Source: a virus. From it: a stretch of DNA of 64,000 nt. Each line of letters opens with the position of its first letter. The stretch's first letter is position 1. The notes beneath the pieces are model-generated. The model saw only the letters and a list, made by a program, of their open reading frames with translations, was not told the DNA's origin and did not search any database. The DNA is taken from UHGV virus genome UHGV-0286546; one strand, written 5' to 3'. Made by a program: the position numbers and the translations under genes. This document shows positions 2,633 to 42,530 of the stretch, piece after piece.

Positions 2633-4426
2633 ATGAAAAAAGTAGTAGAAAATATTATTCAAATTAAGAATCCAGATGGTTATCACTTATTTCCTAAAAC
2701 CAAGGCGTCTGCGGTATATATGGGTGATGGTAAAACATTAGGAAACATAGATCCAAATGCTCAAGAAAACAAAATTGAATCTATCTTAGTAAATGGAAAA
2801 GAATTACCAGTAGAAGGTAAAGCTGTTAATATTAATATTTCAGAAACGACTGGTGGTGTAAGTGATTATGTTTTACTTGAAAATAAACCTAAAATTAATA
2901 ATATTGAATTAGCAGGTAACAAAACTACAATTGATTTGGGTTTGGCTTCATCTTCTGAAGTTAAGAGATTAAATACAAAAATTGAAAACTCAGAAGTAGA
3001 AATTAATACAATAAACACTCAAATCACTATGTTAAATGACCAATTGACGACTACGACTGAAAATGCAAATAAAGCGTTGGAAGAAATAGAACAAACTTCT
3101 GCGTTAATTGAAAATGTTAATAATGATTTAAACACTGAAATAACAAGAGCATTAAAAACTGAACAATCCTTAGATGAAACCAAACAGAATAAATTGGTTG
3201 CGGAAAATGGCATTGTTATTAGAGAAGATTCGAATTCAGATAATACAGTAATTGCACTTGATAATGAATATGTAACGGTACCTTTCTTTAATACTCAGTT
3301 AGAAAGCCTATCTTCAGCGATTATTCAAGACTTAGATGGTTTACAGGAAAATAAACAAAATAATCTTACAGCTGGTTTTGGTATTAAACTTGAGAACGAT
3401 ATAATTTCTTTAGATGTCGAAAGTCCTGAAGAAGAATCTGGAAGTGGTAGTGGTGGAGGTAGTGCTTTTCCTACTCTTCAACTTAAAACAGATGACTTAA
3501 AAACAACCAATTCTTTGTATTTCGACGGTGATAAAGTTGATAGAGTTAAAGTTAATTCAAAAGATATGGTTTTGACTGGTGATAATTTAAAATACTTTAT
3601 TAAATCAGACGGTGAATATACAGAAATTAAAAAAATCGAATATGATATGTGTCAATTCAGTGCTCCAGACTTAGATATTGGTTATATATCGTTGAATCCT
3701 GGATTTACACAGACTTTAAATTTCAATACATACGTTATAGATGAAAATACTGTAATTGAAGATAATTTCTTTGTTGAAGTACCGCGTGATTTTGATAATA
3801 AGTTAACTCCTTTATACAATTATCGTACCGGTTCAGAAATGTATTCATTCGAAGTCTGGACTGATGAATTTGTTGAAGACATGACAGGATTAGGTTCAAC
3901 TGCTATGCCTAGAAAGGCTTTATTACAAGCTTACAGTATGGATGAAATGTCTTTAGCCCGTGTTGCTTTGATTGACTGTTCATATCTTTTCGGTAAACCT
4001 ACTCGTCCATATTTAGCAGTATTTATTAGAGGTTTAAATGGATATTGGCGTACGATAGTTGCTTATAACTTTTACAACTCTATTCCAGATAGCGTTGTTG
4101 GAAATGGAATAGGTAGATATACAATCGGTTTACAGCATTGGGTATGGGAACAAATTCAGCGTAATACTTTAAAAGGTATGGATTTAGACAAACTTAGTAA
4201 ATCGAATAAAAATAGCATCGATTCGATAAAAACTACACTTGACGCTCTGGATACAAAAACTTCTAATAACACGAAAGATATTACTGCGTTACAAACACGA
4301 GTTGATCAGCTTAATTCAGAGTTAAGTACGAGTTTAGCAAATATTGAACAAAGATTACTGACTATAGAAAATAATGTAAGTTCGATGTTAGTAAGATTAG
4401 AAGCACTAGAAGCTAGAAATAGTTAA
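2633..4426 (+). CDS. tail fiber protein (597 aa): conserved N-terminal fiber motif, G/S linker, C-terminal coiled coil
   Basis: N-terminus ...VLLENKPKINNIELAGNKTTIDLGL shares motif NKPxINNxEhxGxxSLxxLG with ORFs 6987..7859 and 8736..9236; GSGSGGGS linker; heptad-like Q/L/N-rich N- and C-terminal segments. Confidence 0.7.
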   Translation: MKKVVENIIQIKNPDGYHLFPKTKASAVYMGDGKTLGNIDPNAQENKIESILVNGKELPVEGKAVNINISETTGGVSDYVLLENKPKINNIELAGNKTTIDLGLASSSEVKRLNTKIENSEVEINTINTQITMLNDQLTTTTENANKALEEIEQTSALIENVNNDLNTEITRALKTEQSLDETKQNKLVAENGIVIREDSNSDNTVIALDNEYVTVPFFNTQLESLSSAIIQDLDGLQENKQNNLTAGFGIKLENDIISLDVESPEEESGSGSGGGSAFPTLQLKTDDLKTTNSLYFDGDKVDRVKVNSKDMVLTGDNLKYFIKSDGEYTEIKKIEYDMCQFSAPDLDIGYISLNPGFTQTLNFNTYVIDENTVIEDNFFVEVPRDFDNKLTPLYNYRTGSEMYSFEVWTDEFVEDMTGLGSTAMPRKALLQAYSMDEMSLARVALIDCSYLFGKPTRPYLAVFIRGLNGYWRTIVAYNFYNSIPDSVVGNGIGRYTIGLQHWVWEQIQRNTLKGMDLDKLSKSNKNSIDSIKTTLDALDTKTSNNTKDITALQTRVDQLNSELSTSLANIEQRLLTIENNVSSMLVRLEALEARNS

Positions 4427-7862: not shown

Positions 7863-8168
7863 TTATTCCTTTGGATATTTCTTTTTTATTTGATTAATAG
7901 TGTTAAACCAGACATTTGTACCTTTAACTTTATCCCAATACAACATGTCTAATTGATCTTCTAAACTTGGGTATTCTGCCAATCTCGCTGCAATAGCTTT
8001 TTCTGCTTTTACTTTTGATTCTAAAACATACTGATTGTTTACAAATACATAGTTTTCATTCGTTTTAATTATTTCGTCAAAGATAATAAATGGAATATTT
8101 TCTAATTCTTCTTTTGTTTTAGCTACTGCGATTATCTTATTGTCTTTATATGCTAAGTACTGACTCAT
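7863..8168 (-). CDS. hypothetical protein (101 aa), possible fiber assembly factor
   Basis: Small ORF overlapping neighbours by 4 nt inside fiber gene block. Confidence 0.45.
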   Translation of the reverse strand: MSQYLAYKDNKIIAVAKTKEELENIPFIIFDEIIKTNENYVFVNNQYVLESKVKAEKAIAARLAEYPSLEDQLDMLYWDKVKGTNVWFNTINQIKKKYPKE

Positions 8169-9382: not shown

Positions 9383-11344
9383 TTATCTAGCAGTAACAGT
9401 AACGTTTGCATCACTACCTTGAATAACACTATTCAAAATAATGACTTCAGCTGTATAAACTGGCCATAAGTAAACGTCAATTACCATTTGATTGTTTGCA
9501 ATTACTAACGGTGTATTGTTTTCTTCGTTACAAACAACACTATATTTAGTAATACCTTCAGCAGACAAGATTGAATTTAAGAAGCTGTTGAACTGTAATG
9601 TGATTTGCATACGTTCATAAGCTGTGTTGTTTTCAAACAAGTGCCATTTAGCTGCATCACGTAATACAGTCTCAATGTAGATAACTGTTCTTGCAACGTT
9701 AATACGATCTAATGCAGAAGGTTTAGCTTGTAACGTTCTTTGACCCCAGTTAACATAACCAGCACTCGGATCTTTAATAATGCAGTTAATCTGGTTGTCT
9801 GTATAGATGTTACCGCCTTTAGTCTGATCGTAGTATTGAGTCAAACCAGTCGGAGAAACAACAGCAGAAGTTAAGACACCTCTATTTAAACCTGCAGGAG
9901 CCATCCAAGGCTGACCATTACCCATAATTTTAGCAACATACGCAGATGGGCACATTACAAAATTTGCACGACCTTGAACTGAATCATATGTTTTAACCCA
10001 AGGAGCAGAAACAGCACCACGATAAGAGTTAAAGCCTTGAATATTCTTACGCCAATCAACTAAGTTTTCGTAATCAGTCTCAGTCATCGGGCAGTCAAAC
10101 AAGCAGAAGCAGTCACGACGATGTTCGGCGATTTCTAACATTTTAGCCTGATAAGAAACATTGCCTTTGTTGACATAACCACTGTTCATCAAGAGCGAAA
10201 CACCAACTTGTGATCTGTCTTTGAAATTATCCCAAGCAGCATTCAAATCAGTATATTTAGCATTCGCATCTTTCCATGTACCAGATTTACCACCAGTCAA
10301 TGCAACGTTTTCAACAAATTCAGGAATAACAATAGCATCTGGATTTGCTTGAACAAAATTCTGGTTTACAAATACTTGAATGTAATTAGAAGTACCGTTT
10401 ACAACGTCTTCAACATACATTGAGTTACCGTAGCTATCTTGGCTCGGATACAATGTACAATATTCAAACGTTTCAAGAGTTTGCATAACGCGACCAACTT
10501 TCTCAATAACTGACAAAGTGAAAGTTGTTTGATCATCATCTGGATAACGACCTACACGTGCATTTGAATCATTTGTCTGTGTTTCAATACTATTAACGAA
10601 GAATGAAACTGTACTAGATTGTCCGTTAACTGTCCAATCATATACTTTAAATGTACCATTCAACGCTTCATTAGACATTCTAGAAACAACAATAGATGCA
10701 CCTAATTCTAATCCATCAACAACACTCGCCGGAACAGTAATCGTAACTAATGTTCTACCTGTATCTCCAGATTCTTCTTCGAATTTAGTAGGAGCAGTTA
10801 CAGCATATGCACGATTTTCATTAATCGTACTATCTGATAAGGAGATATAGAATTTTCTGTTGTTCGGGTCGGTTGCAGTAACAATGAAAGCAGAATCTAA
10901 ATCGTCGCTAGCAAATAAACCAGATTCAGCACCGGAGTCACGAGATGTCTGAGCTGCTGTAATTTCTTCATAAAAATACCCATTTGAAACAGGCATTTCT
11001 TTAACACTGCCTTGAACAGGAATTGTAGCTGCAGCCCAATGAGCATCATTTACACGGTCTTCTGCAGGTAATTCTGGATCACCAGTCGGAACTACACGTA
11101 CAAAGTAATGTTCACCAATTGTATCTGACGCAACTGCTAAAGAATAACCAGCATAACCGTATTTGGAACTTAATGAACCAAAACGACCAGTATAATCTTG
11201 CAGCGTAGATAACAGAGTTGGAGTATTAATCGGTCCATATTCAGCTTCACCGACATAAGCACATGCTGTCGTAGTATTTGTAGCGACAACTCCACTTAAA
11301 TCTTTAATAGAAGCATAAATTCCCGGAAATTTATAGTTGGCCAT
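9383..11344 (-). CDS. contractile tail sheath protein (653 aa)
   Basis: N-terminus MANYKFPGIYASIKDLSGVV...YVGEAEYGPINTPTLLSTLQDYTGRFG matches the hallmark sheath N-terminal motif (xPGVYxxExDxS ... GPxxxPxLhTSxxxFxxxFG); size typical of sheath. Confidence 0.8.
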   Translation of the reverse strand: MANYKFPGIYASIKDLSGVVATNTTTACAYVGEAEYGPINTPTLLSTLQDYTGRFGSLSSKYGYAGYSLAVASDTIGEHYFVRVVPTGDPELPAEDRVNDAHWAAATIPVQGSVKEMPVSNGYFYEEITAAQTSRDSGAESGLFASDDLDSAFIVTATDPNNRKFYISLSDSTINENRAYAVTAPTKFEEESGDTGRTLVTITVPASVVDGLELGASIVVSRMSNEALNGTFKVYDWTVNGQSSTVSFFVNSIETQTNDSNARVGRYPDDDQTTFTLSVIEKVGRVMQTLETFEYCTLYPSQDSYGNSMYVEDVVNGTSNYIQVFVNQNFVQANPDAIVIPEFVENVALTGGKSGTWKDANAKYTDLNAAWDNFKDRSQVGVSLLMNSGYVNKGNVSYQAKMLEIAEHRRDCFCLFDCPMTETDYENLVDWRKNIQGFNSYRGAVSAPWVKTYDSVQGRANFVMCPSAYVAKIMGNGQPWMAPAGLNRGVLTSAVVSPTGLTQYYDQTKGGNIYTDNQINCIIKDPSAGYVNWGQRTLQAKPSALDRINVARTVIYIETVLRDAAKWHLFENNTAYERMQITLQFNSFLNSILSAEGITKYSVVCNEENNTPLVIANNQMVIDVYLWPVYTAEVIILNSVIQGSDANVTVTAR

Positions 11345-23162: not shown

Positions 23163-24581
23163 ATGGTTGATATTGCATATAGCTTTGAAGATGAATATAG
23201 TATAGATGTTCAATTAAAATTCTTAAGTTTATTGCTGTTTGACGAAGCTTGGGCAGAACTCAGTGGATTAGAAGTAGTAAAACCTGAATTTTATGAAAAT
23301 CGTCATTTACATAGAATATGTGAATGGATCCATAAGTATTATAAAAAATATAAGAAAATGCCTACTTCTGCTGTTTTACGTGAATTGGCAAAAGATTATA
23401 TAAATGATAACAATTTAGCTCAAAAAGAATATTTTATCTATGAAGACTACATCAATCGTATTTCAGATTTAAAAGAAGAAGACGATTTAGAATATTTTAA
23501 AGATAAAGCTATTATTTTTGCTAGACAAGTAATGTGGAGAACTGCTTTAGCAAAAGGCGGAAAAGCATTTGAATTAGAAAATTATAAAGATGCAATGGAA
23601 GCTTTCGAAAAGGTATTACATATTGGCGAAGAAGCTGATATGGGCTTAGATTTTCAAAAGTTAGACATGCGTCAGTTCTTGGATTCTTTGGAAAACGAAT
23701 ATAGTACAGATAATATGCTTCAAACACATATTCCTGACTGGGACGAAGCATTAGGTGGAGGTTTTATTAAAGCAAACGTTCATATTATCGCTGCAGAACC
23801 TGGTGGTGGTAAAACTAAAACTATGTCATATTTAGCGAAAGAAGCTTTACTTTCATATAAACGAGTTGTTTTCATTACACTTGAATTAACAGAAAATCAA
23901 ATTATGCAAGGTATTGCTAACTGTGTAACAGGTTTGAGTATTTCAGAAATGCGTAATAAAGCAATACAAGAAGACTTTATACGTAAAATAACTAAGTTTA
24001 AAAATGATTATTCTGATAATTTGGTTATTAAGTTTTATAGACCAGATACAATTACCTGTAATACAATTAATAACTATATTAAAACTCTTTGTAGAAAAAA
24101 ATCCGAAGAATTAGGAAAAGATTGGAGACCGGATGTAATCTTTCTTGACTACATGGATAAAATATTACCGACAACAAGAATAAAGGGAAATGTATACGAA
24201 GATAACGGTAATGTCGCGACAGACTGTAAGAATTTAGCCATTACTTTCGATTGTCCTGTTATTACTGGCTCTCAGTTAGGACGTGGTGGTTGGAATTTAA
24301 CAGGTAATCAGGTAATCAGTATGGCTTCGATTGCGGAATCTGCACGTAAAGTTCATATTGCTCACTCCATGACAACCATCAATGCTAATAATGCCGAAAA
24401 ACAATTAAATAGATGTAGATTTTATATAGCTAAATCACGAACAGGTACACCAGGAAAAGTAATTTACATCGAAAGACATATGGGCAGAGGTACAATAAAA
24501 CAAGTTGAGCCTTACGACGCTGGAGCATTACAAGATCTGTCAGGATGCACCATTAGAAATACGAATAATACAGATAAATAA
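23163..24581 (+). CDS. DnaB-family replicative DNA helicase (472 aa)
   Basis: Walker A AAEPGGGKTKT; H4-like VITGSQLGRGGWN; overall DnaB/gp41-like architecture. Confidence 0.75.
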   Translation: MVDIAYSFEDEYSIDVQLKFLSLLLFDEAWAELSGLEVVKPEFYENRHLHRICEWIHKYYKKYKKMPTSAVLRELAKDYINDNNLAQKEYFIYEDYINRISDLKEEDDLEYFKDKAIIFARQVMWRTALAKGGKAFELENYKDAMEAFEKVLHIGEEADMGLDFQKLDMRQFLDSLENEYSTDNMLQTHIPDWDEALGGGFIKANVHIIAAEPGGGKTKTMSYLAKEALLSYKRVVFITLELTENQIMQGIANCVTGLSISEMRNKAIQEDFIRKITKFKNDYSDNLVIKFYRPDTITCNTINNYIKTLCRKKSEELGKDWRPDVIFLDYMDKILPTTRIKGNVYEDNGNVATDCKNLAITFDCPVITGSQLGRGGWNLTGNQVISMASIAESARKVHIAHSMTTINANNAEKQLNRCRFYIAKSRTGTPGKVIYIERHMGRGTIKQVEPYDAGALQDLSGCTIRNTNNTDK

Positions 24582-24976: not shown

Positions 24977-25007
24977 TTAGATATACCTCTTTAGTTTTAT
25001 ATTTACT

Positions 25008-25187
25008 TTATTTAGAACACTCTTCTTTCTCTGGTGGTCTAAAATCAATTTCAATTTCTTCTTGCTTCTCATTAAATCTAAATGTAAAGATTTCACTGGT
25101 TGGTCTGTCTAGTGGTTGAACGTCTACTAATTCGTTGGTAACTAGACTAGGATAATATCTTTTAACAATCTCATCTAACGTTTTCAT
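25008..25187 (-). CDS. small hypothetical protein (59 aa, below track cutoff)
   Basis: ATG with upstream GGAG; clean ORF MKTLDEIVKRYYPSLV...EKEECSK abutting 24689..24976. Confidence 0.4.
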   Translation of the reverse strand: MKTLDEIVKRYYPSLVTNELVDVQPLDRPTSEIFTFRFNEKQEEIEIDFRPPEKEECSK

Positions 25188-25228
25188 TTTTTGCTTTACA
25201 TCTCCATATAATTTATTATTATAGAACC

Positions 25229-25624
25229 ATGATGAAAAGAATTACTACAGCAAAAGAAACCGTTTTAGATTTATTAGAAAAAGGAAAGCTAATAAATCTT
25301 GTTGAATTACGCACCGGTAAAAACAATTCGGGATCTGGAATAAACAAGATTAACCAGTTACGAACAATCTGTAAATACTTTGATATACCTTTAGAAAATT
25401 ATGTACGTTATTGTAATACAAGTAAATTACGTAATCGTCGTAATTTTTTTATTTTTTTAAACTATCTAAAACGAAATAACATTCAATATATCTATGCAGA
25501 AAAAGTTTTATATTTTCCTGTAGAATCAGAAATTGCAGACATTCTAAGAGTATATAATAACAATTGGAATGCAGTATATGATTCTATCGTAGATTGTCAT
25601 TTGGCCGAGAAAGAAAGTAAATAG
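25229..25624 (+). CDS. hypothetical protein (131 aa)
   Basis: ORF; downstream gene starts 1 nt after stop. Confidence 0.5.
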   Translation: MMKRITTAKETVLDLLEKGKLINLVELRTGKNNSGSGINKINQLRTICKYFDIPLENYVRYCNTSKLRNRRNFFIFLNYLKRNNIQYIYAEKVLYFPVESEIADILRVYNNNWNAVYDSIVDCHLAEKESK

Positions 25625-26344: not shown

Positions 26345-27460
26345 ATGTATATACTAAATGACATCCAATTAGATTATAATGATGTTTTAATTGCACCACA
26401 AACAACTACTATTAATCATAGGGGCGAAGTAGAGATTATTAGAAATTTTAAAACACTTCGAAAAGATGTCGGTGGCCATCATGAAGAATTTAATTGTTGC
26501 CCGGTTATGAATGCTAATATGACACAAACTGGTACTTTTGAATTAGTTGCTGAATTATTAAAAAATGATATGATCGGTTGTATTCATAAATTTTACACCG
26601 TAGAAAAAATTCGTGAATTCTGTGAGCAAAACACAACAGATAATAGATTTTTTATTACGATCGGTTTGCGCAATTGGCAATCTGAAATTCAAAAGTTAAA
26701 AGATTGTAACAAATATAAATGGTCTATTCTTATCGATGTACCGAATGCATATATTCCAGAAGTAGAAAATTTAGTTAAAGAAGTACGTAAAGAATTTCCA
26801 GATAGAATAATTGCTGTAGGTAATGTTTGTACTGGTGACCGTACTCAAGAACTAATTAAAGCTGGTGCAAATATTGTAAAGGTTGGCATTGGACCTTCTG
26901 CAGTATGTCGAACTCGTCATACAACTGGCTGTGGTCGTCCACAATTATCAGCAGTCATCGATTGTGCTAATGCTGCGCATCAAGTTGGTGGATTAATCAT
27001 TGCTGATGGTGGTTTTACAATGTCCGGTGATCTATGTAAAGCTTTTGTTGCTGGCGCAGATATTTGTATGTCTGGATCAATGTTTGCTGGTTGTGATGAA
27101 GCTGCAGGTCAAGTAATCAATAAATGTTTTCGTACATCTGTTTATTCTATGACAGAAAAAGAAAACGAATTCGGTGATATTATTTGTGAACACGATAAAC
27201 CACAATTTGAAATTAAACAATTTAAAGAATATTATGGTATGTCTAGTTTTAGAGCGCAATACGAAAATTATGGTCAAAAAACTAAAACTGGAACTTCTGA
27301 AGGAGTAGAAAGTAAACTTATTCCTTATACTGGACCAGTTATAGATACAATTAACAATATTAAAGGTAGTTTAAGAAGCTGTGGTAGTTATATTGGTGCA
27401 AAAAATATTAAGTATTTTTCTAGACAAGGTACTTTTTATAGAGTGAATAGGATTCAATAA
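26345..27460 (+). CDS. GMP reductase / IMP dehydrogenase-family enzyme lacking CBS subdomain (371 aa)
   Basis: Catalytic loop KVGIGPSAVCRTRHTTGCGRPQLSAV and IADGGFTMSGDLCKAFVAGAD...MSGSMFAG match IMPDH/GMPR TIM-barrel signatures; no CBS insert, so GMPR-like. Confidence 0.75.
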   Translation: MYILNDIQLDYNDVLIAPQTTTINHRGEVEIIRNFKTLRKDVGGHHEEFNCCPVMNANMTQTGTFELVAELLKNDMIGCIHKFYTVEKIREFCEQNTTDNRFFITIGLRNWQSEIQKLKDCNKYKWSILIDVPNAYIPEVENLVKEVRKEFPDRIIAVGNVCTGDRTQELIKAGANIVKVGIGPSAVCRTRHTTGCGRPQLSAVIDCANAAHQVGGLIIADGGFTMSGDLCKAFVAGADICMSGSMFAGCDEAAGQVINKCFRTSVYSMTEKENEFGDIICEHDKPQFEIKQFKEYYGMSSFRAQYENYGQKTKTGTSEGVESKLIPYTGPVIDTINNIKGSLRSCGSYIGAKNIKYFSRQGTFYRVNRIQ

Positions 27461-28737: not shown

Positions 28738-28800
28738 TTTTAGGTAGGAACAGCAATACATAACAAACTCAAACTTGAACTTTGACAGAATACTACCTAG
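28738..28800 (+). repeat. tRNA-trailer hairpin element, copy 1 (TTTTAGGTAGG...ACAGCAAT...ACTACCTAG); contains perfect TTGACA
   Basis: Second copy at 29098..29166, also immediately 3' of a tRNA; TAGGTAG/CTACCTA stem enclosing ~50 nt. Confidence 0.5.
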
Positions 28801-29097: not shown

Positions 29098-29166
29098 TTT
29101 AGGTAGGTACAGCAATCAATTTCGCTTTGTAGCACCAGACTTTTAATCTGTTATAAAACTACCTAG
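29098..29166 (+). repeat. tRNA-trailer hairpin element, copy 2
   Basis: Shares TTTTAGGTAGGTACAGCAAT ... AACTACCTAG with copy 1. Confidence 0.5.
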
Positions 29167-29397: not shown

Positions 29398-29485
29398 GCC
29401 GACTTGCCAGAATTGGTTGAATGGAACGGATTTGTAATCCGTCGGAGTAATCCCATTGCAGGTTCGAATCCTGTGGTCGGCACCA
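29398..29485 (+). tRNA. aberrant class-II-length tRNA (88 nt), anticodon TGT (Thr) in a perfect 5-bp stem/7-nt loop but with a 15-nt extra arm; Tyr (GTA) register does not fold
   Basis: Acceptor GCCGACT/GGTCGGC, anticodon arm ACGGA-TTTGTAA-TCCGT, T-arm GCAGG-TTCGAAT-CCTGT, CCA encoded. Confidence 0.5.
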
Positions 29486-30062: not shown

Positions 30063-30548
30063 ATGAAAATATACACAGACGCCAGTACAAGAAGTAATCT
30101 TTCAGGTTTAGCGTTTATAGTTACTGATGCGAAGAACAAAGTGCAATGTAGAAGAGCGTCTGTTGTAGAAGAAAAAGATAATAACACTGCAGAATTGAGA
30201 GCAATATGTTATGCATTGGCGTATACTAAGTCTGTTGATGAGCCTGTTGTATTAATGACAGATTCAACATATGCGATACAGGCGATAAGAGGTGGATATC
30301 ATAGACCTAATGAAGAAAAATTAATAAACTATATTCATGCTCATATGAAAAATAGAAAGTGTAATATATTTTGGGTGAAAGGACATAACAAAGATGGTAC
30401 TGTCCTTTCTTATTTTAATAAAGAAGCAGATAAGTTAGCAAAACACGTTAGAAAAGAATATGAATATAGTGTAGCTAAACAAAAGAAAATAGATAAACAA
30501 AAAAGATTAGAAGCTGCATTGGTATCTAAGAAAGGAAAAAATAGATGA
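30063..30548 (+). CDS. ribonuclease H (RNase HI-like, 161 aa)
   Basis: Catalytic DEDD pattern: IYTDAST, TAELRAICYAL, LMTDSTYAIQ, WVKGHNKDGTVLSYFNKEADKLAKH. Confidence 0.75.
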   Translation: MKIYTDASTRSNLSGLAFIVTDAKNKVQCRRASVVEEKDNNTAELRAICYALAYTKSVDEPVVLMTDSTYAIQAIRGGYHRPNEEKLINYIHAHMKNRKCNIFWVKGHNKDGTVLSYFNKEADKLAKHVRKEYEYSVAKQKKIDKQKRLEAALVSKKGKNR

Positions 30549-31123
30549 GGACCATAGACTTTTATACAGTTAAAGAAAGTGGTGCAAATATAAATAGAGT
30601 TATATATCATGTTGAAAATTCTGATATTGCTCTTATTAGTGCTTTTCGTTCTGATTCTTCGAAAAAACAAAATTTAGAAAATAATAAAAGATTAGCATTA
30701 GATATACATAATATTGGATTATCGTATATAAAAGTTACTGGTAATTATAAAGAAGAAAATAATTCAGAATTTACAACCGAAGATAGTTTTATAGTAATTC
30801 ATCGTCCAGAATCAAATAAAGCACAAGATGAATTTTTTGAAGAAATGCTTGGATTATGTAGAAAATATAATCAAGATGCAGTATTAATTAGTTTAAAAAA
30901 TCGAAAAGATGTCCCTATTGCTTCGTATGATAGTAATGGAAAAATTGTATATGGTCCATTTACTAAACTTACACTGAGTAATATAGAAGATTTTTATACT
31001 AGAATCCATAATCATAGGTTTAAATTTGAAAGCATTGTAGAATCAGAAGAAGGTATAAAACCGAGCGGATATTCAAATGCCATGCGATATTATGGAACAA
31101 AAGCTTTATTAAAATTAAAATAG
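30545..31123 (+). CDS. hypothetical protein (192 aa); leaderless paralog of 31592..32329
   Basis: Shares FFEEMLGLCRKYNQDAVLISL block with 31592..32329 (FKEEMLALGRKYNQETILLKL). Confidence 0.55.
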   Translation: MRTIDFYTVKESGANINRVIYHVENSDIALISAFRSDSSKKQNLENNKRLALDIHNIGLSYIKVTGNYKEENNSEFTTEDSFIVIHRPESNKAQDEFFEEMLGLCRKYNQDAVLISLKNRKDVPIASYDSNGKIVYGPFTKLTLSNIEDFYTRIHNHRFKFESIVESEEGIKPSGYSNAMRYYGTKALLKLK

Positions 31124-31591: not shown

Positions 31592-32329
31592 ATGTCAAAA
31601 TTTAAAGAAGTAGTAGAAAATGCTTTAAAAGAAAGAGGATTTTCTTTACAAAAACTAACAAATAATCTTGAGATAGATAGTCCGATATGTACGTGTTTTA
31701 TAACTGCATATTTAGAAACAAATGACAAGGAAACAAATATTGCTAATAACAACAAATTAGAATTAAATATTGTATCTCTCGGTTATGAATACGGTTATAA
31801 AAAAATCCTTGGTGGATATGTTTATTCAAATGGAACTTTTGCTAAAGAGCCTGGATTTTTAGTATCTTGTAAAAGAACTAATGTATTACCTGAAGATTTT
31901 AAAGAAGAAATGTTAGCTCTTGGCAGGAAATACAATCAAGAAACTATTTTACTAAAGTTACCAGGAGAAAAACCAGCTTACTATAATACCAGAGGTAATA
32001 AAATAGATGAAAAGGATATTGAATTCGCCTTTACAAAGCAGGTAGATCCAACAAAACCGAAAACACTTTATCCAAATGAAATTACAGCTTGGAGTAAAGG
32101 ATATACTCAATTACAAAAAGATGCAAACAAAGGTAAAAATCAAGCTATTGAATTGACCAATGAAAACTCTTCTGTTTTTGAATCGTTGATATTGACTGAT
32201 GAAGAAATCAATGAATTAAAAGAAGATACCAGAGAAAAATGTTTTTGTAGTGGCTCTGGGATATTAAGAATGGCTGCCTGTAGAGAACATTTGGGTTTAG
32301 AACCTTATCCTTGTCTCAAAAAGCGGTAA
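31592..32329 (+). CDS. member of MS(K/R)F(K/R)TIVEN-leader paralog family (245 aa)
   Basis: N-terminus MSKFKEVVENAL; body homologous to 30545..31123. Confidence 0.6.
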   Translation: MSKFKEVVENALKERGFSLQKLTNNLEIDSPICTCFITAYLETNDKETNIANNNKLELNIVSLGYEYGYKKILGGYVYSNGTFAKEPGFLVSCKRTNVLPEDFKEEMLALGRKYNQETILLKLPGEKPAYYNTRGNKIDEKDIEFAFTKQVDPTKPKTLYPNEITAWSKGYTQLQKDANKGKNQAIELTNENSSVFESLILTDEEINELKEDTREKCFCSGSGILRMAACREHLGLEPYPCLKKR

Positions 32330-33322: not shown

Positions 33323-33595
33323 TTGAAAGATAATTTTATGAATTTACTTAATCAATGTCAAATCCGTTTATACGGTGAAAATGAGTGGAGTGAAATTAAA
33401 GAATTTTATCCGGTAGCTAAAAGTGTTTTGATTGAAACCTGGTTAGAAGATCATCCAGAATTTTATGAAAGATCGGTGTTAAGTGATGGATATAAAGAAT
33501 TGATTATTGAAACAAGACATAATGATTCTGAAGATTCTACAATACAAATTCATAAAGTAGATATTTCATATAAGTTTGATATAAAAGATTTATAA
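33323..33595 (+). CDS. hypothetical protein (90 aa)
   Basis: ORF ending 8 nt before tRNA-like element. Confidence 0.5.
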   Translation: MKDNFMNLLNQCQIRLYGENEWSEIKEFYPVAKSVLIETWLEDHPEFYERSVLSDGYKELIIETRHNDSEDSTIQIHKVDISYKFDIKDL

Positions 33596-33603
33596 ATTTT
33601 TAT

Positions 33604-33723
33604 GAGAGGGTAGCTCAGTCTGGTAGAGCAACGTAAAAAAGTATTTAGTATTTAAGTACGTTCAGCAACATATATTTTTGGTTGGTAACCCGTGTGTCGT
33701 AGGTTCAAATCCTACCCCTCTCA
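33604..33723 (+). tRNA. tRNA-like element with ~46-nt insertion replacing a canonical anticodon arm (intron-containing, disrupted or repurposed tRNA)
   Basis: Perfect acceptor GAGAGGG/CCCTCTC, canonical D-arm GCTCAGTCTGGTAGAGC and T-arm GTAGG-TTCAAAT-CCTAC, but 68 nt (33631..33698) between them with no foldable 17-nt anticodon arm; no encoded CCA. Confidence 0.45.
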
Positions 33724-34355
33724 ACAAGTTTTGGTTTGTTAGTTTAGATAGGCTATAATTAAAGTAAGTAAGTTTGGAAGTTACGACACAGACCAAATAA
33801 CCTATCGTTTCCAAATTATCTTTATCGTTGTCGTGAAGGATAAAGAGTGAAAAACTAACGTTAAAGTGACAAAAAGTATACTTAATTATCCAAAGTATTG
33901 CCAATATCACTTGAATTTATGGGTGTCGTGTTTTCGAAAGAGCATGAAGGTCAGGGTCAATCCCAAAAGAGTCACGAACGTGGATTTCATATTTTACCTC
34001 CACCTGCCCATAATTTTTTATGCTCCGTCGTAGTCTTGGTGACCACTAGTTGAATGTCTATAGCTCCAGTCAATTAGTATGGGAATACTGTTCGAATCAG
34101 TTACGGGGTACCAATTTTTATGAGTAGTTTATTAGTTCTTCTCGCCTTGGAAAATTGAACTAGTGAATAGTCATCTTGTAATGGTAAACATTCTTGACTG
34201 AAACTAAAGAAAAGTTTATATGTTTATTAGAGTAATATGGTAAGCCGCGGCTGAGACTTATAAGGGTAAGTAGATATATAGATGTAATGAAAGTTTTACC
34301 ACAGTATAAAGATTAGTAATATGAAGAAAGAATTAAATGACGCGAGGATAAAATA

Positions 34356-34541
34356 ATGAAAGCAAAGAAAATGACAATATCGATTAAAATACCTAAACCT
34401 AGAGATTTTAATCATTATACCTTACAATTAAAAGGATTGATGAGAACGAAAGTAATTAAAAATAAAAAGAAAGAAATCAAGAAATTCAATTGGAAAAAAG
34501 ATAGTACAGATTATTCAAACATTATATTAGCTAGTGCTTAA
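34356..34541 (+). CDS. small K-rich hypothetical protein (61 aa), doubtful
   Basis: ORF in AT-rich spacer; low-complexity lysine-rich. Confidence 0.3.
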   Translation: MKAKKMTISIKIPKPRDFNHYTLQLKGLMRTKVIKNKKKEIKKFNWKKDSTDYSNIILASA

Positions 34542-34562
34542 ATAATTTGTATTGTCTTCATT

Positions 34563-34650
34563 GGAGGAATGGCAGAGTGGCTTAATGCAGCGGTTTACTA
34601 AACCGTCGTACCGAAAGGTGCCGTGGGTTCAAATCCTACTTCCTCCGCCA
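34563..34650 (+). tRNA. class II tRNA (88 nt, Ser-like architecture) with non-canonical anticodon loop TTACTAA (ACT by standard register)
   Basis: Acceptor GGAGGAA/TTCCTCC, anticodon arm (G)CGGT-TTACTAA-ACCG(T), variable-arm hairpin GTACC-GAAA-GGTGC, T-arm GTGGG-TTCAAAT-CCTAC, CCA encoded. Confidence 0.5.
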
Positions 34651-34657
34651 ATTTATT

Positions 34658-34751
34658 AGGTCTGTCGTTCAATGGTTAGGACACTAGGCTTATACCCTAG
34701 CGAGCGTCTGATTAACGCGAAATCCCAGTTCGAGTCTGGGCGGACCTACCA
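34658..34751 (+). tRNA. 94-nt tRNA-like gene: anticodon arm CTAGG-CTTATAC-CCTAG (TAT) followed by a 23-nt extra arm that itself looks like an anticodon stem-loop (GCGT-CTGATTA-ACGC)
   Basis: Acceptor AGGTCTG/CGGACCT, D-arm GTTC-AATGGTTA-GGAC, T-arm CCCAG-TTCGAGT-CTGGG, CCA encoded. Confidence 0.45.
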
Positions 34752-34971: not shown

Positions 34972-35046
34972 TATTATTTCCGGTTTTACAATATTTTTAA
35001 CAAGACATATATTTGTTTATAGATTAACAGAAAAAAGGAAGTGGAT

Positions 35047-36531
35047 ATGTCTGATAATAAAACAATGACTGAAAAAGGTGCTATTACTAATCAATCTACA
35101 TTAGACAAAGTTGTAGATTGGTTTTATCATGGAGCCGCATTACGTAGAGAAAAAAACAAAGACCGTATTATAGCTTTGTTTGATGATGCTTTTAAACAGG
35201 ATAAAACCAAAGCATTGCGTATTTTATTTTATATTCGTGATATTCGTGGTGGTCAAGGTGAAAGACGCATTTTTAGAATTTGCTTAAATCATTTGGCAAA
35301 AATAGAATCTGCTTGGTTAAAAGACAATTTGGCATTAATTGCTGAATACGGCAGATATGATGATTATTTGTGCTTGCTTGATACAGAAATTAAAAGTGCT
35401 GTAATTGATTTCGTTAAAGCACAATTAGATAAAGATATTGCTGCAATAGATAGCAATACACCTATTTCATTGCTTGCCAAATGGATGCCTTCCGTTACAA
35501 CCAAGAATAAAGAAAAAAGAAGATATTTAAATGCTCTTTTGAATTCTGGTAAATTTGGCACAGTAAAAAATTATAGACAAACGTTATCTAAACTTCGTGA
35601 TAAATTAAATATTGTTGAAAAGAATCTTTGCAATAAAGCCTTTGCTGAAATTGAATATTCTAAAGTTTCTTCTAATGCAATGTCTAAGTATTCAAAAACT
35701 AGAATTTCATCTGGATTAGCTGGTACTTTTTGGCGCAATGACTTAGATAGATTTAAAATGTATTTAGACGCTGTTAAAAACGGTAAAACAATCGACGGCA
35801 AAGAAGTAAAAATAAATGCAAAAACCTTATATCCATATGATGTTATTACAAAATATATGAGTGGTTATAGTATAAGTCATCAAGAAGATCCTGCAGCGGA
35901 AGCTCAATGGAATGCTTTACCTGATTATGTACCAGAGATTAACGGCATTGTAATTTATGATACTTCGGGTTCAATGTATGGATTACCTATGGCTGTATCT
36001 TTGTCGTTGGCTATTTATATTGCTGAAAGAAATAAATCAGAAGTTTGGCGTAATTATGTTATTCCATTCTCATCTAATGCGACTTGGAAAAAAGTAAAGG
36101 GTAACAATTTAGTAGAAAAAATTGAATCTATTTATACTGGAGATTGTTCAAATACTAATTTACAAGCAGCCTTTGATCTTATTTTAGGTAAAGCTATATA
36201 TGCGCAAGTACCTAAAGAAGATATGCCAAAACAGCTGATTATTATTAGTGATATGGAATTTGATTCGGTTTCTTCTAATAACCAAACTAATTATGAAGCT
36301 ATAAAAAGCAAATATAAGAAAGCTGGTTATGACTTACCACAATTAATCTGGTGGAACGTTGAATCAAGAAGCAATCAAACACCGATTACAGTAAATGATA
36401 AAAATTGTTTATTGCTTTCTGGCTGTTCACCGGTAGTTATGCAAGTAGCTTTGGGTGGTTCATACGATTTTATGGAAGCAATCGATAAAATTATTAACCA
36501 AGAACGTTATAGTTGCATCAATTATAATTAG
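35047..36531 (+). CDS. von Willebrand factor A (vWA) domain protein with DUF2828/TROVE-like N-terminal region
   Basis: MIDAS motif IVIYDTSGSMYG; N-terminal ALRILFYIRDIRGGQGERRIF block reminiscent of DUF2828-type proteins (uncertain); ATG at 35047 preferred over GTG at 35041. Confidence 0.6.
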   Translation: MSDNKTMTEKGAITNQSTLDKVVDWFYHGAALRREKNKDRIIALFDDAFKQDKTKALRILFYIRDIRGGQGERRIFRICLNHLAKIESAWLKDNLALIAEYGRYDDYLCLLDTEIKSAVIDFVKAQLDKDIAAIDSNTPISLLAKWMPSVTTKNKEKRRYLNALLNSGKFGTVKNYRQTLSKLRDKLNIVEKNLCNKAFAEIEYSKVSSNAMSKYSKTRISSGLAGTFWRNDLDRFKMYLDAVKNGKTIDGKEVKINAKTLYPYDVITKYMSGYSISHQEDPAAEAQWNALPDYVPEINGIVIYDTSGSMYGLPMAVSLSLAIYIAERNKSEVWRNYVIPFSSNATWKKVKGNNLVEKIESIYTGDCSNTNLQAAFDLILGKAIYAQVPKEDMPKQLIIISDMEFDSVSSNNQTNYEAIKSKYKKAGYDLPQLIWWNVESRSNQTPITVNDKNCLLLSGCSPVVMQVALGGSYDFMEAIDKIINQERYSCINYN

Positions 36532-36650
36532 TTCTTAATAACTATTAAAGACTGTGAAAAACGTACAGCAATCTATAAAATATTTTATATTGAAGACTTG
36601 CTGTGTTTTAACAGCATGATAAGGTATTAATTTCGGTTAATACCTGTTTA

Positions 36651-36715
36651 TAAGGAAGGGCCGAAACAAAAGTTTTTCGTTAAAAGACAGTCTTTACGGT
36701 CCTTCCTTTTTTTTA
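36651..36715 (+). terminator. long hairpin + T8 terminator after vWA gene
   Basis: AAGGAAGGGCCG...CGGTCCTTCCTTTTTTTT. Confidence 0.6.
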
Positions 36716-41774: not shown

Positions 41775-42530
41775 ATGAGTAAGTTTAAAACCATCGTAGA
41801 AAATGCATTATATGAAGTTGGAGCATTGCCTTTTCCAAAAAATATTCAAGTATATGCTAAAAAAGAAAAAGTAAATTTATTTGAAATTAAATATTTACGA
41901 AAAGATGGTAAATTGGATGAACCAGGTGGAATTTGTTATGCTAAAACTGGAATTTGGAAAGATATCCGTGAAAATGAAAATGCTTTTATACGCACGCAAT
42001 TAGATGAAAAATTTAGACCAGATCAAGGCAATTTTAGTAAATATCGTGGTGGTATGATTGTATTTGCTCTGAGTGTCAATACTGTCATTGATAAATTGAA
42101 TTATAATCAATTAGTTGCAGAAATTAAAAAGATTTGGTATACCTTAATAAACAATACCTTTAAAAATAAAATGATTAAAGGTGTAGTTAATTCTATGAAA
42201 AATACTTATGCTAACATTGAAGATGCAGAGATCGGAGGTATTACAATAGGTAATAACTTTAAAGGCATGTATTTTGATGGTAATAAAGTATATAATGATA
42301 AATCAACGAGTTTAGAAATAAATGACATTTCTAGTGAGATGTTGTTATTACTAGCTATTGAAATTTGTAAAGCATTTCGTCAAGATAGCGTTTTAATCAA
42401 AGATTTCAATAAAAATAAATTCTTTTTGTGTGATTCTGAAGAAGTAGAAGGCGAAATTCCAGAAGAAAAAATAAAAAACGCTTCTAAAGACTTAGCAAAC
42501 TTAAAGAATGTAAATACAAAAACAAAATAA
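41775..42530 (+). CDS. leader-family member (MSKFKTIVENALYE), 251 aa hypothetical
   Basis: Conserved N-terminus. Confidence 0.55.
   Translation: MSKFKTIVENALYEVGALPFPKNIQVYAKKEKVNLFEIKYLRKDGKLDEPGGICYAKTGIWKDIRENENAFIRTQLDEKFRPDQGNFSKYRGGMIVFALSVNTVIDKLNYNQLVAEIKKIWYTLINNTFKNKMIKGVVNSMKNTYANIEDAEIGGITIGNNFKGMYFDGNKVYNDKSTSLEINDISSEMLLLLAIEICKAFRQDSVLIKDFNKNKFFLCDSEEVEGEIPEEKIKNASKDLANLKNVNTKTK

Follow-up and report, generated by a model that had tools for sequence, protein, structure and literature searches.

A split tRNA-Thr cloverleaf with a covarying insert

The DNA analysed here, referred to as the window, is a stretch of 64,000 nucleotides (nt) from the virus genome UHGV-0286546, in which 20 ordinary tRNA genes lie between 28.6 and 43.6 kb (ARAGORN, default settings). 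The plus strand of this region carries an aberrant tRNA-like element (33604..33723) and, 1.3 kb downstream of it, a gene for a Ro60-like protein (35041..36531), as well as three stem-loops, S1, S2, and S3, that share a CAGCAA motif with the element. The tRNA-like element is an insert-bearing tRNA-Thr(GGU)-like gene that comprises nt 1–73 of a tRNA without an encoded CCA, as judged from the sequence, a deletion test, and a covariance model.

The acceptor stem of 7 bp (GAGAGGG, 33604-33610, paired with CCCTCTC, 33716-22), the D arm GCTC-AGTCTGGTA-GAGC (33613-29), and the T arm GTAGG-TTCAAAT-CCTAC (33699-715) are all intact, as stated in the first-pass annotation of this locus. That annotation found no 17-nt anticodon arm in the centre of the gene; the arm nevertheless exists, split by 46 nt (33634-33679). 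In the 5′ part of the tRNA (33604..33633, plus strand), the acceptor strand, U8, A9, and the D arm are followed by A26 (33630) and by nt 27–29 of the anticodon stem, ACG (33631-33). The 3′ part (33680..33723, plus strand) resumes with nt 30–31, GG, the loop TTGGTAA (33682-88) with the anticodon GGT (33684-86), and CCCGT (33689-93), and continues through the variable loop GTGTC, the T arm, and the 3′ acceptor strand to the discriminator A (33723). Together, ACG and GG-TTGGTAA-CCCGT (33680-93) form a 5-bp stem and a 7-nt loop with U33, the anticodon GGU, and A37. The 46 nt separate nt 29 from nt 30 in the 5′ strand of this stem, and without them the gene is a perfect tRNA-Thr(GGU) cloverleaf (score 14/14, unique solution).

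This solution came from a brute-force test that seeks a perfect cloverleaf in long tRNA candidates after one deletion, with shuffled centres as the control. A perfect cloverleaf was recovered in 36 of 78 candidate long tRNAs compared to 2.6% of the shuffled centres, indicating that the split anticodon arm is more than a chance arrangement. The discriminator is followed by ACA, whereas all 20 ordinary tRNAs of the window end in an encoded CCA, a difference that had been noticed correctly before. Standard tools did not recover the gene: ARAGORN with default settings made no call, and Rfam, searched over 33500-34560 both at the gathering threshold and at E ≤ 10, gave no match, including RF00005, YrlA, and the intron families. 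The intron option of ARAGORN returned a tRNA-Lys(UUU) with a 39-nt loop intron, which was rejected for the G.G and U.U mismatches in its anticodon stem. Scans for promoters and terminators were uninformative.

The 46-nt insert (33634..33679) is built as a module, comprising a linker TAAAAAA (33634-40), an 8-bp hairpin GTATTTAG-TAT-TTAAGTAC (33641-59), GTT (33660-62), CAGCAA (33663-68), and an 11-nt 3′ tail, CATATATTTTT (33669-79); the GTATTTA tandem repeat and the hairpin previously seen in the centre are both present. Four distinct homologs (the window together with locus L003, and loci L004, L006, and L007) each become a perfect tRNA-Thr, with the anticodon GGU or UGU, once 40–46 nt are removed at nt 28/29 or 29/30. 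Compensatory changes are found in the acceptor, T, and anticodon stems when the window element is compared with those of L004, L006, and L007; in L004, whose neighbouring protein is 67% identical to that of the window, they fall in the acceptor and T stems. A pairing between linker and tail that would close the module is not claimed, as it was inconsistent across homologs when judged by eye.

The module was then sought in other phages by scanning IMG/VR. Exact patterns taken from the two halves of the window tRNA, and a pattern with a stricter D arm, gave no match, whereas looser matching succeeded, and two patterns yielded more than 170 loci from unrelated phages, of which 171 were analysed. 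The insert-bearing tRNAs represent at least 12 isotypes (Thr, Gln, Phe, Pro, Asn, Ile-GAU, Ile-UAU, Val, Lys, Tyr, Asp, and Glu), and the insert position is the same in all of them, after nt 27–29, in 36 distinct perfect cases. These 36 tRNAs share one architecture: a linker of 6–14 nt, a hairpin of 5–9 bp that is always different in sequence and has a loop of about 4 nt, then 2–5 nt (usually 3, ending in A), CAGCAA (33 of 36), and a tail of 6–15 nt. The hairpin reaches at least 7 bp in 67% of the cases compared to 11% of shuffles, and in a MAFFT alignment that was not fitted to structure, 82% of the pairs are formed compared to 53% in shuffles. The covariation score was 0.70, compared to 0.24 for shuffled alignments (0 of 500 as good) and 0.10–0.25 for slid controls, and all 12 pairs vary on both sides. 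These results show that the insert is a conserved, covarying module.

A covariance model, R1, built from the MAFFT alignment of the inserts, gave 39 matches in 885 kb of the loci fetched by pattern and none (E ≤ 0.01) in 813 kb of ordinary-tRNA loci; in the window, its sole match is 33630-33693 (54.3 bits). RF00005 does recognise some homologs elsewhere, as tRNAs that contain a large insertion (L024, 50.7 bits; L306, 48.9 bits). Across the dataset, CCA is encoded by 144 of 230 normal tRNAs compared to 7 of 36 insert-bearing tRNAs, and 9 of 39 loci, among them L004 and L006 with Thr-UGU, have a normal tRNA of identical anticodon at a distance of no more than a few kb.

A Ro60-like protein gene and its neighbouring RNAs

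The gene at 35041..36531 (plus strand) encodes a protein with the Pfam domains DUF2828 and DUF7788, the latter assignments being accompanied by a vWA domain whose DxSGS MIDAS motif is invariant in an alignment of 42 homologs. PHROGs places it in phrog_850, 'RNA-binding protein', whereas a sequence-level search of the PDB gave chance matches only and NCBIfam gave nothing. In an AlphaFold model of the protein (pLDDT, the predicted local distance difference test score, 87.5), the top Foldseek matches are Deinococcus radiodurans Rsr and Ro60 (E ~4-5e-8), and the protein is, on the strength of this model, Ro60-like.

The link between the RNA and this gene is statistical. When all 143 open reading frames (ORFs) of the window of at least 60 amino acids were compared by tblastn with the 171 loci fetched by RNA pattern, the 35041-36531 ORF was found in 71 loci and the next best in 3. 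As a control, 120 loci were fetched with a pattern for tRNAs of normal length that kept the D-arm and T-loop words, and none of them had a DUF2828 gene. The RNA and the gene lie on the same strand in 79 of 79 pairs, with 59 RNAs upstream and 20 downstream, mostly 100–1000 bp apart, and the DUF2828 proteins of these pairs are only 24–41% identical to that of the window. Ascertainment on the RNA was removed by fetching 67 loci from GTDB by the protein alone; within 1 kb of the gene, these contain 64 elements consisting of a stem and CAGCAA on the gene strand compared to 7 on the opposite strand. One of them, L306, also has two tRNAs of 111–112 nt just 3′ of the gene.

Homologs of the protein occur in at least 711 deposited phages, some labelled 'Ro-like RNA binding protein' in SEA-PHAGES records. 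The family is present in Felix O1-like coliphages and Salmonella phages, in phages of Listeria, Staphylococcus, Enterococcus, Campylobacter, and Vibrio, in cluster L mycobacteriophages, and in Lak megaphages.

The same motif heads RNAs that are not tRNAs. Stem-loops of this kind (median 62–66 nt) stand in arrays flanking the DUF2828 genes of many phages, for example four between the tRNAs of Felixounavirus Alf5 (NC_031082.1, ~24.37-25.2 kb) and three in mycobacteriophage Rumpelstiltskin, where they are 3′ of gp54. The consensus in phages and bacteria is (C)(U)(U)A-CAGCAA, with stems that begin GA or AGA. A 7-nt anticodon-like hairpin loop, Y-U-NNN-R-N and usually CU-NNN-AA, is present in 51 of 104 short elements compared to 5% of shuffled interiors. 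A scan for stand-alone elements with 6-bp stems had a high background (~13 per 100 kb), and the claims made here use stems of at least 7–8 bp together with strand and control comparisons. In two phages of 235–254 kb (L009 and L010), where the gene has no tRNAs nearby, two elements lie just upstream and one just downstream (+15/+25), each with a 7–8-bp closing stem, 2–3 nt, ACAGCAA, an interior, and the 3′ strand, and the stems show compensatory changes.

The three stand-alone stem-loops of the window are all on the plus strand. S1 (28740..28800) reads TTAGGTAG-GAA-CAGCAA-interior-CTACCTAG and contains the anticodon-loop mimic TCAAA-CTTGAAC-TTTGA (28769-85). S2 (29099..29166) has the same closing stem as S1, followed by GTA-CAGCAA and a different interior that contains CAGA-CTTTTAA-TCTG (29136-50), which mimics a Lys-UUU anticodon loop; it has a homolog in L004. 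Both S1 and S2 lie directly 3′ of tRNAs. S3 (36555..36679), 24 nt downstream of the Ro60-like gene, reads TGAAAAAC-GTA-CAGCAA-...-GTTTTTCG, and occurs with covarying stems also in L003, L004, L008, and L304.

A third form is represented by circularly permuted tRNAs in L371, L314, L321, and L322, in which the order is anticodon arm, T arm, loop-closed acceptor stem, and D arm. Here, the helix and CAGCAA are attached to the tRNA body at the junction of D arm (nt 26) and anticodon arm. Because this junction is exactly where the insert of the window element sits, the window element can be described as a version of this RNA in which the break has been relocated: it begins and ends at the acceptor stem, and a loop caps the helix on the presumed protein side, whereas the permuted tRNAs have their ends in the presumed protein-binding helix and a closed acceptor stem.

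Several observations concern the annotation of such elements. In Escherichia phage Alf5 (L302, NC_031082.1), a minus-strand 'hypothetical protein', ORF044c (24989-25312), overlaps two plus-strand CAGCAA stem-loops in the tRNA cluster and is probably a mis-annotation. Under long-intron settings, ARAGORN calls tRNAs with introns of ~220 nt just 3′ of the Ro60-like gene at two loci (L003:6441-6734 and L005:2397-2693); these calls overlap S3 and a tRNA-Gln and are probably artefacts of the permissive setting.

The region downstream of the insert-bearing tRNA, described earlier as ORF-free and locally GC-richer, is modestly GC-richer: the GC fraction of 33650-34250 is 0.34–0.37 compared to 0.25–0.30 in the flanks, and its ORFs are all at most 82 amino acids. 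Directly 3′ of the tRNA, at ~33750-33822, lies a conserved stem-loop (ATAGG...CCTAT) with homologs in L004 (~8010-8080) and L007 (~4065-4140), the latter with a compensatory change; the interiors of the L004 and L007 homologs contain ACAGCAC and then the conserved AAAAACTAAC. This stem-loop may represent a further small RNA. The ORF-free stretch also holds a second unusual tRNA-like sequence (34022-34113), in which an acceptor-like stem of 8 bp and the T arm ACTG-TTCGAAT-CAGT are accompanied by a 16-nt 'anticodon' loop and by ACCA at the end. It is called only by relaxed ARAGORN (Trp-CCA with an 11-nt intron), its fold energy is no better than that of shuffles (z −0.14), and it has no CAGCAA. 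A further ~170 bp of the window (34121-34291) are missing from L003, whose Ro60-like protein is 99% identical.

The wider window is AT-rich DNA of a tailed phage, with a tail sheath gene (9383-11344) and a DnaB-like helicase gene (23163-24581), and a DNA similarity search against the deposited phages of INPHARED found no relative of it. Three paralogous S-adenosylmethionine-lyase-like genes, one of them a weak match, are spread through the tRNA region (30545-31123, 31592-32329, and 41775-42530). Two tRNAs have long class-II-like variable arms in isotypes that normally have none, an 88-nt tRNA-Thr(UGU) (29398-29485) and a 94-nt tRNA-Ile(UAU) (34658-34751); the long Ile(UAU) form is also present in L005 and L006, and the L007 version is 75 nt. 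The gene at 34563-34650 is a tRNA-Ser with the anticodon ACU. As for the host, a 12-kb contig (L304, JBJFGR010000076.1) with a Ro60-like gene 99% identical to that of the window is binned in a Succinivibrionaceae metagenome-assembled genome, and relatives encode an outer-membrane beta-barrel protein; these two observations give a weak hint that the host may be a gut or rumen gammaproteobacterium.

Docking module, intron, or pseudogene

The feature at 33604-33723 is real, and is neither an artefact nor, most probably, a pseudogene. We consider it about 60% probable that the element is a tRNA-Thr(GGU) scaffold carrying a docking module for the Ro60-like protein, that is, a Y-RNA-like chimera rather than a conventional intron-containing gene. 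The protein would bind the helix and the single-stranded CAGCAA of the module, by analogy with Ro60 and Y RNAs. The 'effector' end exposed by such a complex would be the tRNA body with its anticodon loop, presented as a tRNA mimic on the protein ring, and the module would be enclosed by the anticodon stem in a three-way junction. The connectivity of the RNA is the same as that of the circularly permuted, YrlA-like tRNAs beside other DUF2828 genes. Both the physical binding of the module by the protein and the retention of the module in the mature RNA are what we infer from these comparisons. As to the role, it may be speculated that the RNA serves as a decoy or tether for enzymes that recognise tRNAs or anticodon loops, such as host anticodon nucleases, or that it acts in tRNA quality control with a recruited exonuclease, or that the ribonucleoprotein handles introns.

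The first-pass annotation had left an intron, a disruption, and a repurposed tRNA scaffold side by side. The repurposed scaffold fits best, because the insert is a conserved covarying module that is also found outside tRNAs beside the same Ro60-like gene, and because the gene lacks CCA, unlike its neighbours, and relatives have normal tRNAs with the same anticodon. The element belongs to a large and apparently undescribed family of partner RNAs that mimic tRNAs and anticodon loops; in the literature on DUF2828, DUF7788, PF11443, phage tRNA introns, and anticodon-loop decoys, of which our coverage was incomplete, no account of the system or of a link between DUF2828 and RNA was found.

The alternative that deserves most attention, although we regard it as rather unlikely, is that the gene is a genuine intron-containing tRNA-Thr(GGU), with a new, protein-dependent mini-intron at nt 29/30 that is excised by host or phage nucleases and a ligase with the help of the Ro60-like protein. 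In that case, the hairpin and CAGCAA would be what the protein recognises, and polycistronic tRNA transcripts would contain the stand-alone elements as related signals for processing, as the position of S1 and S2 directly 3′ of tRNAs would suit. The perfect cloverleaf appears only upon precise deletion, as expected of an intron, and across the 12 or more isotypes, the exons keep the tertiary positions of tRNAs and canonical anticodon loops. The stem pairing across the insert, however, is equally expected of an unspliced three-way junction, and the motif occurs in RNAs that cannot be introns, namely the stand-alone stem-loops of the two large phages without nearby tRNAs and the permuted tRNAs. 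Simple splicing is disfavoured because CAGCAA also heads such non-tRNA stem-loops, three of them in the window, as well as the permuted tRNAs. The depletion of CCA and the normal same-anticodon copies described above likewise argue against an intron, and the insert shows no group I, bulge-helix-bulge, or known ribozyme signature. Ro60-type proteins bind RNA and are not known as nucleases, ligases, or splicing enzymes. Pfam was run on 17 ORFs of the window, which lie mainly in or next to the tRNA cluster of this ~240-kb genome and include IMPDH, RNase H, SAM-lyase-like proteins, and DnaJ; these ORFs gave no domain of an RNA ligase or endonuclease, and neither EndA splicing endonuclease nor RtcB-type ligase was among them. 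The evidence on splicing leans towards an RNA that is not spliced.

Two further explanations carry far less weight. A tRNA gene inactivated by a small selfish insertion, such as an element like a miniature inverted-repeat transposable element (MITE) or a homing remnant, with the association to the Ro60-like gene being mere synteny, would account for the AT-rich insert with its GTATTTA tandem repeat and for the lack of CCA, in phages where homing endonuclease genes (HNH, LAGLIDADG, T5orf172) are numerous. Such a pseudogene is improbable, because conservation with covariation extends to relatives whose Ro60-like proteins are 57–67% identical, where compensatory changes preserve the stems; moreover, the same architecture recurs in unrelated phages with different sequences and covarying hairpins, and the DUF2828 linkage holds across proteins of 24–41% identity, with none of the 120 controls carrying the gene. 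A conventional tRNA intron, whether a group I intron that splices itself or a bulge-helix-bulge intron of archaeal type that a splicing endonuclease cuts, is effectively refuted by the size and structure of the insert. Archaeal tRNA introns do occur at non-canonical stem positions, including 29/30, and ARAGORN with the intron option forces an intron model. That model, however, is the mismatched Lys-UUU one; the insert of 46 nt is far below group I size (at least ~200 nt with a P1–P9 core), as had been argued from its length in the first place, matches no Rfam intron, and lies in a stem rather than a loop. The minimum-free-energy and centroid folds, obtained by thermodynamic folding only, show a 3×3 internal loop inside a hairpin and not a bulge-helix-bulge motif across both junctions. 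The context, with the beta-barrel gene in relatives and the nearly identical Succinivibrionaceae contig, points to a bacterial host.

Several findings weigh against the docking-module interpretation. The exons keep all the features of a functional tRNA (U8, A14, the D-loop GG, U33, A37, and the T loop), and a spliced product would fill a gap in the tRNA set of the phage, as the window contains no other gene for Thr(GGU). In roughly half of the loci fetched by protein, a CAGCAA element is lacking up to 1 kb from the gene. The Ro60-like protein has no match to Pfam TROVE even at E ≤ 10, and the relation to Ro60 rests on predicted structure, with low global TM-scores of 0.32–0.43; because of these low scores, the protein is called Ro60-like and not a Ro60 ortholog. 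In addition, the tRNAs of Lak megaphages are reported both with and without short 'enigmatic introns', which resembles an intron polymorphism (Devoto et al. 2019, PMC6784885).

If the docking-module interpretation is true, it explains a class of phage tRNA genes that are missed by standard tools or reported with 'enigmatic introns', and it provides DUF2828/DUF7788, a family whose function is unknown and which occurs in at least 711 sequenced phages, with cognate RNAs. The principle of Ro60 and Y RNAs would then hold for a second protein lineage, a highly diverged one, with RNAs that display genuine anticodon loops, which hints at a role in the contest between phage and host over tRNAs. Current annotations do not include these small RNAs, and in at least one case an annotated ORF overlaps them.

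Relation to known RNA systems

As in bacterial group I and archaeal or eukaryal bulge-helix-bulge tRNA introns, an intervening sequence lies in a tRNA gene and its removal restores the cloverleaf; here, however, the insert is of 46 nt in a stem, has neither a group I core nor a bulge-helix-bulge motif, belongs apparently to a bacterial virus, and carries a motif that is also found outside tRNAs. The 'enigmatic introns' of Lak phages, compared by description, are likewise short, lie within phage tRNA genes, and are not accounted for by any tRNA finder; Lak-B3 encodes a distant DUF2828 homolog (25% identity) with a stem and CAGCAA element ~200 nt upstream.

Outside phages, the Class I RNAs of dictyostelids (RF01414) are 42–65 nt long, with a short terminal stem, the 11-nt CCUUACAGCAA next to the 5′ strand, and a variable remainder; they have been reported as restricted to Dictyostelia, and direct binding has been shown for a single partner, the RRM protein Rnp1A/CIBP (Kjellin et al. 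2021, PMC7919456). The stand-alone elements have the same plan, with ~60 nt, a terminal stem, the motif right after the 5′ strand, and a variable rest, and they share 7–10 of the 11 positions of CCUUACAGCAA, which the CAGCAA motif nearly equals. Full-length sub-threshold matches of RF01414 were obtained on stand-alone elements of L328 (26.1 bits), L310 (22.9 bits), and L371 (18.9 bits), compared to a gathering score of 41.5, whereas S1 and S2 of the window gave no match. The window element differs in that it carries the motif inside a tRNA and not in a terminal stem. It is a tentative suggestion, more doubtful than not, that RNAs with a helix and CAGCAA are universal partners of DUF2828 proteins in phages, bacteria, and eukaryotes, that Class I RNAs are their kin and bind a Dictyostelium DUF2828 protein, and that the phage arrays are mimics of anticodon loops or whole tRNAs, serving as protein-held decoys or tethers for tRNA-targeting enzymes. 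This would offer a lead on the long-unexplained Class I RNAs, whose function has been unknown since 2004. An IMPDH/GMP-reductase-family gene lies just 5′ of the tRNA cluster in the window (26345-27460), and the relatives L004 and L007 also have one; IMPDH (GuaB) is one of four proteins pulled down with Dictyostelium Class I RNA, which may be a coincidence.

The closest system is that of Ro60/Rsr with Y RNAs, especially YrlA. YrlA (RF02553) is a tRNA-mimicking Y RNA that is encoded within 4 kb of a Ro60-type gene on the same strand (Chen et al. 2014, PMC4201824), and phage Ro60 with its Yrl RNAs is also a close system (PMC12135203). In both YrlA and the present case, the gene of a protein with vWA and MIDAS and a ring-type Ro60 fold, predicted in the present case, lies beside small RNAs on the same strand, and these RNAs combine a protein-binding helix, presumed in the present case, with a tRNA-like module of D arm, T arm, and acceptor. 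The permuted tRNAs near DUF2828 genes even have the YrlA order of T arm, closed acceptor, and D arm, and the YrlA model matches them below threshold (L321, 28.3 bits over the full model; L371, 21.4 bits; gathering score 69). The YrlA model has no match in the window, and no family of Rfam reaches threshold on the window element, the stand-alone RNAs, or the permuted RNAs. The protein here is of the DUF2828/DUF7788 type and not TROVE, the RNA has a helix with CAGCAA in place of the bulged helix or CGAA motif of Y RNAs, and the phage RNAs display a true anticodon stem-loop. Furthermore, the window element ends at the acceptor stem and has its presumed protein-binding helix inside, which makes it a circular permutation of YrlA. 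The element is, overall, a variant of the Ro60–Y RNA theme with new features.

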